Source: a virus
Lineage: Duplodnaviria; Caudoviricetes
DNA: 64,000 nucleotides
Strand: one strand, 5' to 3'
Virus record (IMG/VR): IMGVR_UViG_3300009370_001552
Coordinates: 13,341-77,340 of that record
In this document: one piece after another, positions 3,628 to 39,610 of the stretch
How the letters are laid out: every line of letters starts with the position of its first letter
How positions within the stretch are numbered: position 1 is the first letter of the stretch
Notes under the pieces: generated by a model
Told to the model about the DNA's origin: nothing
What the model saw: the letters and a program-made list of their open reading frames with translations, nothing else
Database searches by the model: none
Position numbers and translations under genes: made by a program

Positions 3628-5079
3628 TTAAACTTTATATAATGTAAATCGTTTTCTTGGTGTCCATTTTTCAAATGCTGTATCCATATCATGAACAAAT
3701 CTGTCACACATTAGTTTTGCTGACATGCCCACTTCTTCTGTTAATAGATATTCTCTACCATATCCACCAAATTCTTTTCTCTTTTCAGGTCCTTCATTAT
3801 ACCACTCCATTAGTCTATCTGCCACATCATCAAACCTACATCTATCGTCAAATATATAAGGCGTTGGAATTGAACCCTGTAAACTTCTATTTGATGGCCA
3901 TACTGGTTTTACCCAATCTCCCCAAGTTAAATCAGGATTATCTTTCCATTTTCTATCATCATGTAATGAATGTACCCAATCATAATCTTTTTCCGTTAAT
4001 AGTTTGTCCTTATAAATAAATCCACACTGATCTTGTAGTCCACCAGTTACATTTACCGTTATTGGTGTTCCTGACATTAGACTTTCTGCCGTACCAAGTC
4101 CGTAACCTTCATTACTCGCAATGTTTATAGTTACATCTGCAATATTATAGAGAAAATTGAGTTGTTCGTCATCTATCTTTTGGTGTGAAAATATAACATC
4201 ATAATCAGGACAAACAGAATCAACCACTCGTGGTAAATCTGTTCCATTTTGGTCTACTGGTTGAGTGTGCATAATCAACACACATTTATCTGCATTTTCT
4301 TTTGGTAATTGGTCACAGAATGTTTTATATGCCATAATCACATCACTTGGAACTTTTCTTCTAATGTTTCTATTGTTCCAAAATACTATAAAATCCTTTT
4401 CTGTATTATGAAGTACTGATTTTCTATATCCCTGTAGTTTGTTCCAGGCTTCCATATCTAATTCATTTATTGGAAAGAACTTATCTTCTGGAATACCATG
4501 TGGAACATATGTACAATCCCAATCTGTTCTCGGTTTCTTCACGGCAGCATCTCTAACCATTGCAACAGATTGCTTGGATATGCTCATAATCAAATCAGAG
4601 CTTTCATAGAAAAACTCGTTGTATCTTGGAGTAGGGCGGTCGTCCCAGATTGAATAGTAAAAAATTGGAATGTGTTGGCGTAATTCATGTTCCATTTGAT
4701 ATAACCACCCCCAAAAGCGAGGGTCTGTATAATGAAGTATGGCGTCTGGTTTTTCAATGTTCATCAACTGACGAAGTAATTCCTGATTTCCATAACCACT
4801 AATTGGATATATTTTAAGATAGGCATCTTCAATTCCAGTTTCTTCACGGACTGAATCATTCATATCCACCACTTTACCTTCTTCTGGATGTTTGATTGCT
4901 CCACCTGCTTGACAAAATTTATATCTATGTAACATTCCAAGTACAAAGTTTTTGGAGACTGTACCAACTCCACTACTCATTCTTAAATCATCCGATAATA
5001 ATAATATAGTTTTTCTATCTTCTATCGGAAGAACTTCAGTTCCGTTTCTTATGTCTCCAATCTTATATTTTTTCATCAT
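3628..5079 (-). CDS. Glycosyltransferase family 4 (GT-B)
   Basis: SDDLRMSSGVG, WNNRNIRRK, ASNEGYGLGTAE (Ex7E). Confidence 0.85.
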   Translation of the reverse strand: MMKKYKIGDIRNGTEVLPIEDRKTILLLSDDLRMSSGVGTVSKNFVLGMLHRYKFCQAGGAIKHPEEGKVVDMNDSVREETGIEDAYLKIYPISGYGNQELLRQLMNIEKPDAILHYTDPRFWGWLYQMEHELRQHIPIFYYSIWDDRPTPRYNEFFYESSDLIMSISKQSVAMVRDAAVKKPRTDWDCTYVPHGIPEDKFFPINELDMEAWNKLQGYRKSVLHNTEKDFIVFWNNRNIRRKVPSDVIMAYKTFCDQLPKENADKCVLIMHTQPVDQNGTDLPRVVDSVCPDYDVIFSHQKIDDEQLNFLYNIADVTINIASNEGYGLGTAESLMSGTPITVNVTGGLQDQCGFIYKDKLLTEKDYDWVHSLHDDRKWKDNPDLTWGDWVKPVWPSNRSLQGSIPTPYIFDDRCRFDDVADRLMEWYNEGPEKRKEFGGYGREYLLTEEVGMSAKLMCDRFVHDMDTAFEKWTPRKRFTLYKV

Positions 5080-12369: not shown

Positions 12370-14697
12370 TTAAAACCTATAAAATAATGAAAATGTAGAA
12401 CTTCTGGGAATACCAGTCTGAAATCCCCAACTACTCGCACTTGACCAATATTCTGTATTCAATAAATTATGAACTTGTAACTGTACATCGAGATTTTTAG
12501 ATACACCATATTTAATTGATAAATCAGTAAGGAAACTTGATGGTAATGTTGCAGAATCTTCTGTAGATACCCACTCACCATTCTCATCATTGTGTCCATC
12601 AACCGAAACTTCAGAATTATTTTCCATAATATAAATGTCATCATAATATCTCGAAGAAACTACTGCAGTTAAATCTTTCCATTTATATGAAAGATTACCA
12701 CTCAATATAGTTTGTGGAAATCCAGTTTCATACCTTGTATCACCAATGGTTGAATCTACATCAAAACCATATAGTATACTTCTACCTTCTTCTCCAAATG
12801 GTGTCCCCCAAACATTCTCAGACTTTGAATAATTTAAGTTCAATACTAATCCATATGGAAGTTCTAATGTGGTATATAACTCTATTCCACTATAATTGGC
12901 ATCACCTATTGGAATATATTTTCTTCCCTGATAATCATAATCATCAGTATTAGCCATCTCTGGATTTACAACCAACATATTTTTACCTCTAAAATCTATA
13001 TTATATATATTCAATCCACTATTCTTATATTTAACTCCAAATTCAGTATCAATTGCTTCTTCTAAGGTTATATCTTCCTTTGGTTTACCATAATTAAACA
13101 TTGCCCGTATTCGTGGTTCATTTTCTGTTTTCGATACGCTCAACCTTGTTGATAAATCGTTATTATGTGTATAGACTACTCCAAGTTTAGGTGACCAACT
13201 TGTAAATTTCTTATCCCAAGTAATAAGTTTACCAGTAGTATTATTAGTACTAATCATATTTTCTTCTACTTCATAAGTAATACTGGAACGTTGTAAATCA
13301 GCCAATACAGAAAATTTACCAATATTTTGTAAATACCTAACAAAAAAACTTGATTGTGGTTTGTATGTAGTAAAATCCCAAATCTTCCCACCTTCAGGAA
13401 ATCCAGTTGGAACTCCACCAATATTATAATAATATTCATCTCCACCAAAACCATTATTAATATATGCCTTATGGTCTGATATCCAAACTCTATTATCAAA
13501 TCCAGCATATATTTTACTATCCTTATTGAGTGTCTTTGATAAAGTAAGTACTTGACCAAATTGTTTATGGTCAACCCAACTTGTATATTGATGTAAATTA
13601 GGATACCACGGGGCACCTGCATTTACTGATTCATAACTCATTAACCCATTTTCATCTTTACTAACAAAATAAAACTTATCCAATAGTGCTAAAAATCCAT
13701 TACCCCAAGAATAATGTAAATCATTATTTAACTCAACACCATTATCAAAAGTATAACTATGGTGTAATTCTAACATTGGTTTATGATAAGCATTATTATC
13801 TAAACTTGACCTTCCACCTGCATTAATAAAACTACCAACACTATTTGATGTTCCACCTTTTGCAAACCCAACAACATCACTTAAAGTCAAATAGGATTCT
13901 GAATCTGGTACATCTAATGTGCTAACTTGAACGTTTCCACTATAATTTCTACCATACTTAGCAAAAGTAGATGGTGATTGACCATAAAATCCAAGCGTAT
14001 TAAGTGCAGGTGAACCATGAAATACCAATCTCAAATTGTGTCCTTTGTAATTAGTTCTGGCTGAAAGATAATATGCTAAAGACTCAAAATAAGAACCTAC
14101 TTTATACCCATAATCACGAAGATATGTAAATCTTGTAGTATAATTCTCAGCTGTCTTATTAACACTAAACTTTAAATTACGAGAATCTCCATTCCAAGTA
14201 GAATAACCAAAATTAGTTTCTGGTTTATCAGAATCATCAGTAATTATATGAACACTACCACCAAGATTACCAAGTCCATATAAAGATGAACTAACTCCTC
14301 GTTGAACTTGAATTTTATTTGTTGATTGAGATGTTGATCCCCAATTTGACCACCAAACCTTTTTAGAAGTTGGATCATTTATAGGAATATTGTTTATAGA
14401 TACAGAAAGTCTTTGTTCGTCAAAACCTCTTACCCATAAATTAGTTTGAGATTTAACTCCCAAATCATTTCTAATATAAACACCTGGAACATTTGACAAA
14501 TGATATGCTAAGTCTTGTCCCTCAAAAGTTTCAATCTGTTCTTTATTAATATCTGTATATGATACTGGTGTATTTGATTTTGCAATATTATAATCACCAA
14601 CTACAACAATCGTATCACCAACGAAATCACTATCCCACACTATTACTGTCTGTGAATATCCCACACTCATTAATATCGCAATCAATAACTTCTTCAT
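12370..14697 (-). CDS. TonB-dependent outer-membrane receptor
   Basis: Signal peptide; plug motifs (LSNVPGVY, VRGF, INNIPIND, IQVQRGVSSSLYG..GGSVHII); C-terminal Phe. Confidence 0.9.
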   Translation of the reverse strand: MKKLLIAILMSVGYSQTVIVWDSDFVGDTIVVVGDYNIAKSNTPVSYTDINKEQIETFEGQDLAYHLSNVPGVYIRNDLGVKSQTNLWVRGFDEQRLSVSINNIPINDPTSKKVWWSNWGSTSQSTNKIQVQRGVSSSLYGLGNLGGSVHIITDDSDKPETNFGYSTWNGDSRNLKFSVNKTAENYTTRFTYLRDYGYKVGSYFESLAYYLSARTNYKGHNLRLVFHGSPALNTLGFYGQSPSTFAKYGRNYSGNVQVSTLDVPDSESYLTLSDVVGFAKGGTSNSVGSFINAGGRSSLDNNAYHKPMLELHHSYTFDNGVELNNDLHYSWGNGFLALLDKFYFVSKDENGLMSYESVNAGAPWYPNLHQYTSWVDHKQFGQVLTLSKTLNKDSKIYAGFDNRVWISDHKAYINNGFGGDEYYYNIGGVPTGFPEGGKIWDFTTYKPQSSFFVRYLQNIGKFSVLADLQRSSITYEVEENMISTNNTTGKLITWDKKFTSWSPKLGVVYTHNNDLSTRLSVSKTENEPRIRAMFNYGKPKEDITLEEAIDTEFGVKYKNSGLNIYNIDFRGKNMLVVNPEMANTDDYDYQGRKYIPIGDANYSGIELYTTLELPYGLVLNLNYSKSENVWGTPFGEEGRSILYGFDVDSTIGDTRYETGFPQTILSGNLSYKWKDLTAVVSSRYYDDIYIMENNSEVSVDGHNDENGEWVSTEDSATLPSSFLTDLSIKYGVSKNLDVQLQVHNLLNTEYWSSASSWGFQTGIPRSSTFSLFYRF

Positions 14698-36044: not shown

Positions 36045-36961
36045 TTAAAAAAATCTTTCCAGACTTTGCTCTTCATCTACCGGTGATCCCCAGTCTAAAC
36101 ACTCATAAAATAAATTGAGTTTTTTAGTGAGTGCCCTATCATATATCTTGTCGTAATCCATATTTTCCTTAATAAACTGCATAATTTCTGGTGGATCTTC
36201 ATAACCTTTATATGCCACTACTGTTAATCCAAGTGGATTATTCTTTAGATACACCCATCGTATTTTATCTCCATTACTAATAAACCCATATTTTTTATCT
36301 CGTTTATAGTATCGTAGTAAATCATTATAACTTACTGATGCTCTTACATGAACTGGAATACCTTTCTTTAATACTGTAAATACTGATGAGTTTTTATTGT
36401 CCTTTTTAATATATTTCCACATTCCCTTTACACCAGTTGGAGACGATATTTCATCCAAATCTTTTAATCTCATATTTTTCTTAAATCTGGTTATTCTATG
36501 GTCTATTTTATCTCGTGGAACACTTGCCAAAATATCTTCCAATACATCACTTAATAACTGTCTAAATGCTGGTGCGAAATTACTACGCACCGTATCCAAT
36601 CCCTTTACCATAGTCTTGTTTACCTGAACTCCATTATCACTAATGATTTTCATACCATATCGTTTCTTGGTAATAAATAAACCGGACTTTGCTATAATTT
36701 CCTGTTTAATCTCAAATCTGTGTTTATCTAAATTACAAAACTTCTTTGCAAAATAATCATATGAATTATTTAAATATTCTTGAACTTCGGTTGCTATTTC
36801 ATTTATTCGTTGTGCCATCATTACATCACTCATTTCCTTACCCTTAAATCTATGGTTAATGAGTTTTAGTGCTGATACGAAAATGGAGTCAGTCAGGTGT
36901 CAATATAGATCACATGATCCATATTGACATTAGGCAGCCTCCTTATTTTTTTTATTTTCAT
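36045..36961 (-). CDS. polB: Family B DNA polymerase, C-terminal subunit with 5-nt coding gap in motif C
   Basis: ATG 36961 (AAGGA upstream) gives MKIKKIRRLPNVNMDHVIYIDT then TGA; shifted frame resumes TDSIFVSA... in frame with ORF 36045-36833 (KKRY, KGLDTVR, VRWVYL-like thumb motifs). Confidence 0.8.
36898..36929 (-). promoter_or_regulatory. 14-bp mRNA stem-loop immediately 5' of the coding gap
   Basis: UGUCAAUAUGGAUC-AUGU-GAUCUAUAUUGACA, one G-U pair. Confidence 0.7.
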
Positions 36962-36962
36962 T

Positions 36963-37796
36963 CTATTCCTTAATTTCTATAAATTTACAACCAAGATGGT
37001 CTATTATTTCTTGTTTTCTTCTTTCATCTCGTTCTACTTGTTTTTTATGGAATGGTTCATAATACTCTATAACCACGTTTTTTTCTTTATCATAACCATC
37101 TACAAAATATCCCAATTCTTTAATGTGATATTCACCACCGTTTTCAGCGTGTTGGAAATTGTATCCGTTTTCTTTTCCGTATTGTTCTATTAGTTTACAG
37201 GCTTCTGGGTTATATCCAGGCATCATTTGTCCACCATTAAAAACATTTCTCTCAATTCTCTTAATTGCAGATTTTCTCATTCTCCGCAATTCCTCCGTTC
37301 TCTTCGGGCGTTTATAGTTTCCACTATCTTCACCAGTCCGGATTTTTAATTTACTTACCTCTTTATTCATTTCATCTGCAATTTCAACACCAAACTTATC
37401 TACCCATACCTGGTAATAACTGCTACCATAATTTCCATTCCGTTCTCCACTCGCACCACGAGATTTGTTAAACTCATCAAATTGTTCTTTAGTCCAACCA
37501 TACTTCTTTTTCTTATATTCAAATGAGTTGGAATGTGCTTGTTTTTCTCTATATTCATCCCATTTGATTTTTCCATCTATTTCACCGTGTTTTTTAATCA
37601 TATTCTCTAAAGTATTAACTCGTTTACTTTGATATTTAATTTTAGCAACTTTAGCTTCATCTAAATCCATTCCCTTAAATATAGTAAAGTATTCTATTGT
37701 TCCAGGTACTCTACTCAATCTCATTTTTTCAGCTTCTTCTTTTTCATAACCTTTGCCTAACCAATGTTGTAGTGTTCTAGCACTTCCTCTACTCAT
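36963..37796 (-). CDS. Free-standing Vsr-like homing endonuclease between polB halves
   Basis: YFVDGYDKEKNVVIEYYEPFH core, shared with 2739-3434. Confidence 0.8.
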   Translation of the reverse strand: MSRGSARTLQHWLGKGYEKEEAEKMRLSRVPGTIEYFTIFKGMDLDEAKVAKIKYQSKRVNTLENMIKKHGEIDGKIKWDEYREKQAHSNSFEYKKKKYGWTKEQFDEFNKSRGASGERNGNYGSSYYQVWVDKFGVEIADEMNKEVSKLKIRTGEDSGNYKRPKRTEELRRMRKSAIKRIERNVFNGGQMMPGYNPEACKLIEQYGKENGYNFQHAENGGEYHIKELGYFVDGYDKEKNVVIEYYEPFHKKQVERDERRKQEIIDHLGCKFIEIKE

Positions 37797-37852: not shown

Positions 37853-39610
37853 TTAACCCAAAAAATCATCTGTTTCCAGTAAATCTTTTACTTTTATTTC
37901 CATTTTTCTACCGTTTCGTATTACATCAATTCTATTATTTTCGTGTAATTTTCTAACTTCACCATTTTCCAATTCAACTTCAACGGGAGGTCCCAATTCA
38001 CTATTATACTTATGATTTGCTATTTTTGCAGTGAACTTAATTAAATCCTGTCCTACTGTCGTCACAGAAGCCGCATTATCCAAATCATAAAATCTCCATC
38101 CCTGAAGTCCAAGTACGCCGTAAAGTGAATTAAGTAAAACCTTCTGGATATATTGCCGTCTATTAAAATACTCGTATCGTTCATCATTTCCTTCATCTGC
38201 AAATTTCCTTGCTAATTTTCTAAATTCCTTTCGTGTATCAAACCACTTGGATAGAATAGTTGAAATTAAACCTGCCTTATCCGTTTTATATAATATACCT
38301 TCACTTGAAATTGATACTTCATTATCATTAAAAAATGTCTCTAATTCTGTATTAGTTAATTGTCCTTTCCTTTTCCCATTTAATATAATAGAATGTGTCT
38401 TTTTCTTCTTTCCTATAAAATCTTGAGCGTTCCACCCAACTACTTTTCCAAATTTTGTTTCTGGACTTATATTTAAGCTCATAATTATAGAAGGATACAT
38501 ACTTGTAATATCCAAATCATATACCCAGTCATGTTTACCCCGTTGTGGGCGTTTTACATATGCACCTACAAACTTGTTATCTGTAAACTCACCCTTTTCT
38601 GGTTTATTAGGGGCAACGATATTCAATTTCTTCAAGTGAGTTAAAATTGCTCCTTCTAAATATCTACTACTGAAATATATATCTTCATATGGAACATGAC
38701 CAATATGACAAATACCTCGTGCAATGTCAATAAAATCTAATTTATCATCCAATTGTTTTACTATTCTAACATCATGAATATTATATTCCACAAACTTTCT
38801 CAAATCATTTTCATATAAATCATTCAATGTTCCATCATAACTTATTTTAGTTGAACCAACCTCTGTTTGACCTATATCATCCAATCTATATGATGGTCTT
38901 GATCCAAATGTAAAATCTTTATAGAGTAATAGATAATCTAATACACTTACCCCTGCTATTTTATATCGTTTAGTGTATTTACTATACATCACTTTTGATA
39001 TCGGTGATAAATTGTCTGCAACACTTTGACCGAGAACTCTAATTGTTCTATTATATAAATATGGAATATCGAAACCATCTACATTCCAACCAGTAATTAT
39101 AGTAGGTCGTAATTCTAAATATTTTTGGTAAAACCTCTGTAACAATTCATATTCCGTCTGACAACTTTCTACTACACTCTTGCCAAATCCTGTTGTATCT
39201 AATGTCTTACGTTCATCTAATACTAAACAAGTGTAAACATTTCTGATATTATCCCACATAGCAATTGAAGTTATTTTATTCGGTGCCTTCATTGGGTCTG
39301 GAAATCCCTCTGTAACTTCACACTCAATATCAAATATGAATATCTTATGTCCAGTGGACGGTTCTTCACTTTTCCCATACATATCAATCAAAGTTCTCAT
39401 TTCAGGATTTACATCACTTTCCCACAATCCCTGTGCAGTCTTATCCCATCTATATACTTTCTTTAATTTATCACCATATAAAGATGCAAACGTTCCATAA
39501 TTATCTTTAATATAAGCATACTTTTTATATTGCGTTGTTATATGTCCGTTACGATCATCCCAAATGTGGACAACCCCCTTGAATGGTTCTACATAGATAT
39601 TTTGATAAAT
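37853..39610 (-). CDS. polB: Family B DNA polymerase, N-terminal subunit (exonuclease, motifs A and B)
   Basis: FDIEC (ExoI), GWNVDGFDIPY, YNIHDV, DITSMYPS (A), KVLLNSLYG (B); frame extends upstream of TTG 39427 to an ATT at 39610 with GAGG RBS. Confidence 0.9.
   Translation of the reverse strand: MYQNIYVEPFKGVVHIWDDRNGHITTQYKKYAYIKDNYGTFASLYGDKLKKVYRWDKTAQGLWESDVNPEMRTLIDMYGKSEEPSTGHKIFIFDIECEVTEGFPDPMKAPNKITSIAMWDNIRNVYTCLVLDERKTLDTTGFGKSVVESCQTEYELLQRFYQKYLELRPTIITGWNVDGFDIPYLYNRTIRVLGQSVADNLSPISKVMYSKYTKRYKIAGVSVLDYLLLYKDFTFGSRPSYRLDDIGQTEVGSTKISYDGTLNDLYENDLRKFVEYNIHDVRIVKQLDDKLDFIDIARGICHIGHVPYEDIYFSSRYLEGAILTHLKKLNIVAPNKPEKGEFTDNKFVGAYVKRPQRGKHDWVYDLDITSMYPSIIMSLNISPETKFGKVVGWNAQDFIGKKKKTHSIILNGKRKGQLTNTELETFFNDNEVSISSEGILYKTDKAGLISTILSKWFDTRKEFRKLARKFADEGNDERYEYFNRRQYIQKVLLNSLYGVLGLQGWRFYDLDNAASVTTVGQDLIKFTAKIANHKYNSELGPPVEVELENGEVRKLHENNRIDVIRNGRKMEIKVKDLLETDDFLG

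Follow-up and report, generated by a model that had tools for sequence, protein, structure and literature searches.

Programmed translational bypassing in phages has so far amounted to one case, found in a single topoisomerase gene, namely gene 60 of bacteriophage T4 with its homologues, and the gene 60/mobA bypass cassette in the topoisomerase large subunit was reportedly described by Bonocora and colleagues in 2011. Synthetic stop-hops in E. coli, with +5 and +6 movements between matched codons flanking a stop, are said to go back to Weiss and colleagues in 1987; the mitochondrial byp elements of Magnusiomyces capitatus, 27-55 nt long, were reportedly described by Lang and colleagues in 2014, and the split gp43 of T4-like phages by Petrov and Karam. 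The MobA element is laid out as a C-terminal extension, the endonuclease, an N-terminal extension, a homologous region and the bypass (Manning & Atkins, bioRxiv 10.1101/2022.08.31.505936); it has been found only in topoisomerase genes, and its bypass cassette has been called unique (Manning & Atkins 2022, bioRxiv 10.1101/2022.08.31.505936). Precedent for +5/+6 stop-hops comes from E. coli constructs, a natural in-frame stop-hop was not known at the time of a 2016 review, and the 5' stem-loop of gene 60 has been proposed to act as a 'motor' that pulls the mRNA (PMC5009743). Fractured genes, in turn, have their halves rejoined by split inteins (Dassa et al. 2009, PMC2677866). Here, we describe a locus in 64,000 nt of DNA from a marine T4-like phage of the Caudoviricetes (IMG/VR record IMGVR_UViG_3300009370_001552, positions 13,341 to 77,340; this whole stretch is called the window), in which the gene for a family B DNA polymerase (PolB) is split by a free-standing open reading frame (ORF) and the catalytic motif C of its downstream part, PolB-C, is interrupted by 5 nt. 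From the comparison of natural alleles we infer that these 5 nt are crossed by a programmed translational bypass, a +5 hop of peptidyl-tRNA(Thr), a reading to which we assign a probability of about 0.75.

The locus resembles gene 60/mobA in its layout. In both, a free-standing homing endonuclease (a probable one here) interrupts a gene essential for replication, the upstream part carries a C-terminal extension, and the downstream part carries an N-terminal extension, a short homologous region and a gap that starts with a stop codon, adjoins invariant metal-binding residues and is flanked by take-off and landing triplets readable by one tRNA. In both, the gap often outlasts an endonuclease that has decayed or disappeared, and some relatives have a Vsr-like nuclease in place of the original. 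Gene 60 differs in that its gap lies in the Toprim domain of the topoisomerase large subunit rather than in PolB motif C, in that tRNA Gly or Asp rather than Thr is involved, and in that MobA is an HNH enzyme whereas the nuclease here is probably Vsr-like, of the PD-(D/E)XK type. The gene 60 gap, at 20-50 nt, comes with a take-off stem-loop and a mini-Shine-Dalgarno (SD) element, whereas the PolB gap has neither, since 5-7 nt leave no room for them. Its best-conserved RNA element is instead a 5' hairpin abutting the P-site codon, on which the cassette appears to rely in place of in-gap signals, whereas the 5' stem-loop of gene 60 is reportedly not conserved between clades. The system would work like gene 60 and the synthetic stop-hops, yet it is not homologous to the gene 60 cassette, with which it shares no sequence homology.

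All features of the locus lie on the minus strand, with coordinates given as window positions. Read from ATG 36961-36959, the first frame of PolB-C gives MKIKKIRRLPNVNMDHVIYIDT and then stops; its codons after the ATG are AAA ATA AAA AAA ATA AGG AGG CTG CCT AAT GTC AAT, followed by ATG GAT CAT GTG ATC TAT ATT GAC up to the ACC codon, where the sequence continues ACC TGA CT GAC TCC ATT TTC, with the resumed GAC at 36890-36888 and a short GACT GACT repeat around the gap. The GAC TCC frame is open from 36899 to a stop at 36045 and matches Pfam DNA_pol_B. The polymerase is of the T4-type family B, split after ..ELG in the window, and its nearest cultured relative, at 41% identity, is that of Microcystis phage Mel-JY01, whose unsplit gene reads ..NEKYNTELGTIGKDYIQYIDTDSVFVSS... 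Once the 5 nt are skipped, YIDT and DSIF align without gaps to the intact PolB of relatives, and because ..Y[IV]DTDS[VI]F.. is uninterrupted in Mel-JY01 and in some 120-150 uncultured relatives, exactly 5 nt are extra in the window. An earlier examination of this DNA without database searches (the sequence-only reading) had claimed that the motif is broken by 5 nt and that the first frame ends in DHVIYIDT-stop, with ACC and ACU as candidate take-off and landing triplets; all of this holds. The adjacent ORF that it had noted lies between the two polymerase parts. Near-identical DNA was not found in cultured phages. The idea of a phage tRNA(Thr) with an unusual anticodon loop was set aside, the window having no tRNA genes.

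The gap recurs well beyond this one contig. A PolB-C search of IMG/VR returned 80 loci, 75 of which (at most 78% identical) are unsplit with an unbroken Y[IV]DTDS; the other five, which are the closest at 90% protein identity and come from five different metagenomes, read GAC ACT TGA CT GAT TCT ATA TTT, with the same TGACT as the window and synonymous changes in the take-off codon and in the four codons past the gap. Pattern scans of IMG/VR and the JGI metagenome collection, plus protein-guided fetches, brought the distinct gapped alleles to 22 including the window's, 20 with a 5-nt gap (TGACT, TGACG, TGACA, TGATT, TGATG, TAACT, TAACA, TAACC, TAATG or TAGCT) and two with a 7-nt gap (TAGTGCG in L300, TGAAGCG in L372). 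These scans fixed ACN at take-off, TRR after it, the 5- or 7-nt length and resumption at GAYTC, and left free the wobble positions and the last two gap bases (the last four in the 7-nt scan). Three pattern matches (L084, L085, L090) were discarded as chance, and NLHIYLDT/TGAAT/DSILVGQ, found in 14 metagenome contigs, as an unrelated string read in another frame of a gene resembling riboflavin deaminase; among 185,579 prokaryote genomes, scanned with a variable gap, all matches were due to chance. Downstream of the gap, PolB-C is under strong purifying selection among gapped alleles: the ratio of nonsynonymous to synonymous divergence (dN/dS) is 0.04-0.13, and 0.06-0.07 between the window and its nearest gapped relatives, from which it stands at a dS of 0.65-0.9. 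Two 283-aa proteins starting MTDSIF... (P0002, P0004) appear in public records as hypothetical proteins of 'Candidatus Woesearchaeota archaeon' metagenome-assembled genomes; their contigs are probably mis-binned phage, with the start called at a TTG overlapping the stop.

The codons on either side of the gap favour a hop. Two ORFs in different frames, with non-coding bases between them, together encode one conserved protein, a stop codon would occupy the A site, and take-off and landing triplets can be read by the same tRNA (ACC to ACU in the window). A stop follows the take-off Thr codon in 22/22 alleles (TGA 12, TAA 8, TAG 2), a pattern partly imposed by the TRR of the scans, which also permitted TGG, every TGG match being chance. 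Take-off codons in 20 alleles are ACT (8), ACG (7) and ACC (5), never ACA. The search left open the landing triplet, which immediately precedes the resume codon GAY; it is ACN in 16 of the 20 5-nt alleles (ACT 11, ACG 2, ACA 2, ACC 1). In these 20 the fourth gap base is C in 17 and T in three, never A or G, and the fifth takes all four values, a distribution as expected of a Thr codon. The non-ACN landings are ATG twice (both with take-off ACG), ATT (with ACC) and GCT (with ACT), and both 7-nt gaps end in GCG with take-off ACG; each is one change from a Thr codon and can still pair with an NGU anticodon if G.U is allowed. The byp elements, likewise short mobile inserts in conserved genes that the ribosome skips, also have matched or near-matched take-off and landing triplets and tolerate deviations; they differ in being 27-55 nt long, mitochondrial, inserted at many sites instead of one and without a linked endonuclease. 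Gaps of 5 and 7 nt both rebuild exactly Y[IV]DT-DS when skipped, whereas as frameshifts they would need opposite directions. The stop after Thr, the Thr-like landing and the rebuilt motif agree with what the sequence-only reading had predicted for a stop-hop, an interpretation that comparison of sequences could hardly support further.

The hairpin just 5' of the take-off codon is the second line of evidence. The 14-bp stem-loop noted in the sequence-only reading proved real (-20 kcal/mol, z = -5.05 against shuffles); its 3' arm, made of the codons ..ATC TAT ATT GAC A, reaches as far as the first base of the take-off codon. All gapped alleles with enough upstream sequence have such a hairpin, of 28-53 nt and -10 to -26 kcal/mol, with a 3' arm that reads ..ATC TAY NTN GAY A and ends at most two bases from the first take-off base. 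The 5' arm lies within the leader and codes for V-D-V-D-like peptides, the reverse complement of I-Y-I-D. Over the 60 nt upstream of the Thr codon, the mean minimum free energy is -20.9 kcal/mol in 20 gapped alleles and -6.4 kcal/mol in 121 intact ones, and at least 10 of the 14 nt 5' of that codon are paired in 20/20 of the former against 18/121 of the latter. Compensatory changes occur at seven pairs, counted back from the Thr codon: -7 (A-U in six alleles, G-C in 15), -4 (A-U in four, G-C in 15, C-G in two), -6 (U-A in 15, C-G in four), -1 (G-C in 14, A-U in three) and, with further exchanges, -10, -12 and -13; where third codon positions vary in the 3' arm, the 5' arm changes to match. Most TGA-type alleles (L003, L202, L211, L232, L176, L171 and others) also have an SD-like AAGGAGG or UAGGAGG (Arg AGG AGG) 7-10 nt 5' of the hairpin; folding of the hairpin would place this element some 9 nt from the stop and the landing site. 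Most TAA-type alleles have AAA-rich Lys codons instead.

Table 1. Features of the split polymerase locus (window positions)
Feature	Position	Strand	Content or basis
PolB N-part (exonuclease, motif A/B region)	37853..39610	-	Pfam DNA_pol_B and DNA_pol_B_exo1; aligns to Mel-JY01 PolB
End of PolB N-part		-	..KIANHKYNSELG, then 45-aa tail; ORF limits
C-terminal extension of PolB-N, 45 aa (PPVEVELENG...KDLLETDDFLG) and stop	37853..37990	-	ORF comparison
Free-standing 277-aa ORF between both polymerase parts	36963..37796	-	Probable Vsr-like (PD-(D/E)XK) homing endonuclease
Shine-Dalgarno AAGGA, 5 nt ahead of ATG 36961	36967..36971	-	Sequence reading
PolB-C ORF1: leader MKIKKIRRLPNVNM (N-terminal extension) and DHVIYIDT (first half of motif C)	36896..36961	-	Ends at take-off codon
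Internal SD-like AAGGAGG (codons ATA AGG AGG), 8 nt 5' of hairpin	36938..36944	-	Possibly accessory
14-bp hairpin UGUCAAUAUGGAUC-AUGU-GAUCUAUAUUGACA	36898..36929	-	Folding
Take-off codon ACC (Thr22)	36896..36898	-	Sequence reading
5-nt coding gap TGACT	36891..36895	-	TGA 36895-36893 overlaps landing triplet ACT 36893-36891
PolB-C ORF2 from GAC TCC (DSIFVSALK...), 281 codons and stop	36045..36890	-	Rest of palm and thumb; Pfam DNA_pol_B

In the bypass that we favour, ribosomes would start at the leader ATG, translate the leader and DHVIYIDT, and pause once peptidyl-tRNA(Thr) sits on ACC in the P site, with UGA filling the A site. The 3' arm of the hairpin would then occupy the 13-14 nt immediately 5' of the P site, with the 5' arm and loop already outside the ribosome; the basal 3' arm, at about 13 nt, is close to the length of mRNA held inside the ribosome 5' of the P site. 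With ACN in the P site, the 5' arm and loop would just have emerged and each further base pair would need the mRNA to move 5'-wards, such that zippering of the hairpin would pull the mRNA in that direction. The anticodon would leave ACC and re-pair 5 nt downstream on ACU, and decoding would restart at GAC, giving one PolB-C chain with an intact YIDTDS (junction LPNVNMDHVIYIDTDSIFVSALK) that would assemble with PolB-N. In the synthetic stop-hops, too, the peptidyl-tRNA leaves a codon beside a stop and re-pairs a few bases on, ACC UGA CU to ACU being a +5 case; those are low-level reporter events, whereas in this case an essential enzyme would depend on the hop, which is accompanied by a hairpin of its own with covarying arms. 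As judged from the alleles in hand, a hop of peptidyl-tRNA(Thr) appears to be the only reading that fits them all.

Several points weigh against the hop. Four of the 20 landing triplets in 5-nt alleles are not Thr codons, and the take-off codon does not predict which third base the landing triplet has. In E. coli constructs, short hops without a stimulator run at about the 1% level, and a replicative polymerase needs a reasonable yield. A convincing 3' take-off stem-loop was not found, the downstream folds being weak, inconsistent CUGA/UCAG pairings. The scan patterns would have missed arrangements outside the fixed ACN, TRR, length and GAYTC, and the relatedness of the alleles means that they do not count as independent events. 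Finally, 11 of 21 alleles have a start codon overlapping the stop, either TTG or GTG in NTGA of TGA-type alleles or an AUG in UGAUG/UAAUG (L171, L196).

These overlapping start codons also speak for the main rival, termination at UGA followed by reinitiation at the overlapping codon (CUG in the window; UUG, GUG or AUG elsewhere), which would produce a three-piece polymerase: a 22-aa MKIK..YIDT would be released, (M)TDSIF... would be made, and two chains would together form the motif C hairpin, perhaps with the aid of the SD-like AAGGAGG, which comes close to the restart codon once the RNA hairpin is folded. Such an element in most TGA-type alleles, the MTDSIF... proteins already annotated by gene callers and the fact that split polymerases are known to work (PMC2677866) all lend this some credit, and we nevertheless consider it unlikely. 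After ACN TGA, the codon overlapping the stop is automatically NTG, and 10 of the 21 tabulated alleles have no ATG, GTG or TTG in the open part of the downstream frame before GAY (only CTG in the window, L172 and L173); reinitiation is therefore not the general mechanism. With TGA, a take-off ACA would create ATG, yet ACA, the commonest Thr codon in these genes, stands at take-off in 0/20 gapped alleles as against 49/121 intact ones, and the SD-like element is absent from most TAA-type alleles. Reinitiation also leaves unexplained the Thr triplet with a free third base before GAY and the GCG that ends the 7-nt gaps, and structurally it is implausible that the chain could be broken between the two catalytic aspartates, with Thr duplicated or fMet added there. 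It may coexist with the hop in alleles with ATG, TTG or GTG.

An ordinary frameshift, -1 on the 5-nt gaps and +1 on the 7-nt ones, would add two residues to motif C, as in YIDT-LT-DS in the window. Under this reading either gap length would bring in just two codons, namely [LV][TAMI] with 5 nt and S-A or E-A with 7 nt, and an A-site stop and a 5' hairpin are known modulators of frameshifting (PMC5009743). A slippery sequence is nevertheless absent, the tRNA on ACC cannot re-pair at CAC (-1) or CCU (+1), and sister cassettes would have to shift in opposite directions. A motif that is otherwise invariant is unlikely to tolerate two more residues between its catalytic aspartates, and the inserted pair would vary from allele to allele (LT, LI, VM, LA, SA, EA); we regard this alternative as very improbable. 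For the window's own allele, both the -1 shift and reinitiation are disfavoured.

We give hardly any credence to removal or skipping of the 5 nt in nucleic acid, by hairpin-stimulated transcriptional realignment or RNA processing, or to defective genomes that need helper phages. A nascent-RNA hairpin behind the RNA-DNA hybrid can stimulate forward transcriptional slippage, as in a Roseiflexus IS element (PMC5009743). In the gapped alleles AC recurs at a 5-nt spacing, yet re-pairing would be limited to 2-3 nt and a homopolymer run is lacking. We know of no process that excises 5 nt, and the strong purifying selection on PolB-C over deep divergence speaks against defective genomes. A group I intron was rejected, as the break is only 5 nt and the motif halves lie directly on both sides. 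A sequencing or assembly artefact, which the sequence-only reading had wished to see excluded, or a recent inactivating mutation has next to no probability, with only its prior and the GACT GACT repeat in its favour: assembly error is excluded by the same TGACT in independent assemblies from five other metagenomes with synonymous flank changes and by 22 diverged alleles with covarying flanks, and inactivation by the conserved gap and the purifying selection downstream.

The sequence-only reading had further proposed a cassette in which the split gene, the free-standing endonuclease and the gap belong together, and the comparison lends weight to this idea, with the same nuclease family, tails and leader recurring in relatives. 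The 277-aa ORF matches phrog_22677 (E 5.7e-10) and, below threshold, DUF559 (E 0.086). Its AlphaFold model has a C-terminal alpha-beta-beta-beta-alpha-beta domain that comes closest to the catalytic domain of I-Bth0305I (3r3p; probability 0.97, TM-score 0.56, root-mean-square deviation 2.8 A over 80 residues, but E 0.29), with Vsr (1vsr) lower in the same list of structure matches; a profile search of the endonuclease family against the PDB gave no meaningful match. We read the ORF as a probable Vsr-like PD-(D/E)XK homing endonuclease, with modest support. Gapped alleles differ in what is left of the endonuclease gene: a near-full-length homologue, 50-58% identical and in the same position, is present in six gapped alleles (L211, L300, L232, L214, L176, L205), while seven have a truncated remnant (L003, L188, L238, L206, L196, L226, L220) and three have no endonuclease left (L202, L173, L171), the gap being kept in all of them. 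At the end of the endonuclease ORF, both in L300 (upstream of 3501) and in a 35-aa remnant of L171 (L171:3337-3444), ..YEN* is encoded by TAT GAA AAT TAA, which overlaps the ATG AAA ATT AAA of the leader out of frame, as described for MobA and the N-terminal extension of gene 60.

A quick FastTree of 131 PolB-C sequences mixes gapped with intact alleles and requires at least nine changes of the gapped state; L300 and one intact, unsplit relative share 84% identity. Movement or loss of the cassette is therefore not tied to its host gene. In every gapped split allele the hairpin and the gap are retained together with the PolB-N tail and a leader of the form M[KR]I[KT].I[RK][RK], and the sequences support a mobile cassette ordered as PolB-N tail, Vsr-like endonuclease (in many cases degenerate or missing), MKIK leader, hairpin and gap. 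In L372 (IMGVR_UViG_3300009374_000591, ~5025-5054), PolB is unsplit and its N-part continues through ..NKELRGGSSVDVIHNQEDYVLYIDT, while the hairpin and a 7-nt gap, ACG-TGAAGCG-GAT, remain; it is probably a secondary fusion following loss of the endonuclease. Hairpin and gap thus form a unit independent of the gene split. Among split PolB-C proteins, P0078, known from the protein alone, has an MKIKKIKK leader and a continuous YGDTDS, and its own contig was not recovered with P0078 as query in IMG/VR; P0034 and P0057 are also split. The cassette would have spread among marine T4-like phages, and its gap would break the endonuclease target in the gene's most conserved DNA, such that, by analogy with mobA and gene 60, it probably protects the gene from its own nuclease.

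The 45-aa extension of PolB-N is absent from intact polymerases and conserved in gapped and split relatives. Compared between the window and L003, L171, L188, L193, L202, L205, L220 and L232, it follows the pattern [VI]E[LM]E[ND]G ... R.G ... [DE]L.E.DD[FIL]. The tail resembles strands of an intein N-fragment but without Cys1. No Hint or intein family was found on it, and a functional split intein was rejected, there being no Cys1, no terminal HN and no nucleophile; the tail begins PPVEVE.. after ..SELG, and the leader is that of Table 1. The tail and the basic MKIK leader may together serve to dock the two subunits like a clasp. Fractured genes and split gp43 are likewise replication genes, PolB among them, that are broken by a free-standing endonuclease, in some cases Vsr-like, with halves expressed separately; they differ in that the PolB tails here are without Cys1 and the terminal HN-plus-nucleophile, and in none of those cases does the downstream half contain a frame-breaking gap. 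In the window, the N-part frame opens with 68 codons whose product is homologous to the N-terminal end of intact polymerases; they contain no ATG, GTG or TTG. The start is likely to be ATT 39610, since (M)YQNIYV aligns there with MYKNIYV of Mel-JY01 and an SD AAAGAGG (39624-39618) lies 7 nt upstream. Elsewhere, a 484-kb uncultured phage (LR756508.1; L002:3890-4010) has a PolB intein that ends ..GSIVVHN/TDSVF between D and T of the same motif, one codon from the gap site. Motif C DNA appears to attract more than one kind of mobile element.

Taken together, it seems likely that this is a widespread and independently evolved cassette, with hops of 5 or 7 nt over a stop in the catalytic motif of a replicative polymerase and a hairpin as the main driver. 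A literature search found no description of bypass in a polymerase gene. Gene callers and polymerase-based phage phylogenies misread these genes, as they are annotated as truncated or as starting at TTG (MTDSIF...). If true, the hop would be a second natural family of programmed translational bypassing and the first natural stop-hop, and it would offer a minimal, sequence-diverse system for testing the model of an mRNA-pulling motor. The gap is as short as gaps can be, and the 22 natural variants, which differ in stop codon, take-off codon, landing triplet, hairpin size and presence of the SD-like element, are a ready-made mutant series for ribosome release and landing. It would also add a second homing endonuclease that travels together with a recoding element protecting the enzyme's own target. 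With an unrelated cassette in another essential gene beside the first, the pairing of endonuclease and bypass would be a recurrent strategy of mobile DNA.

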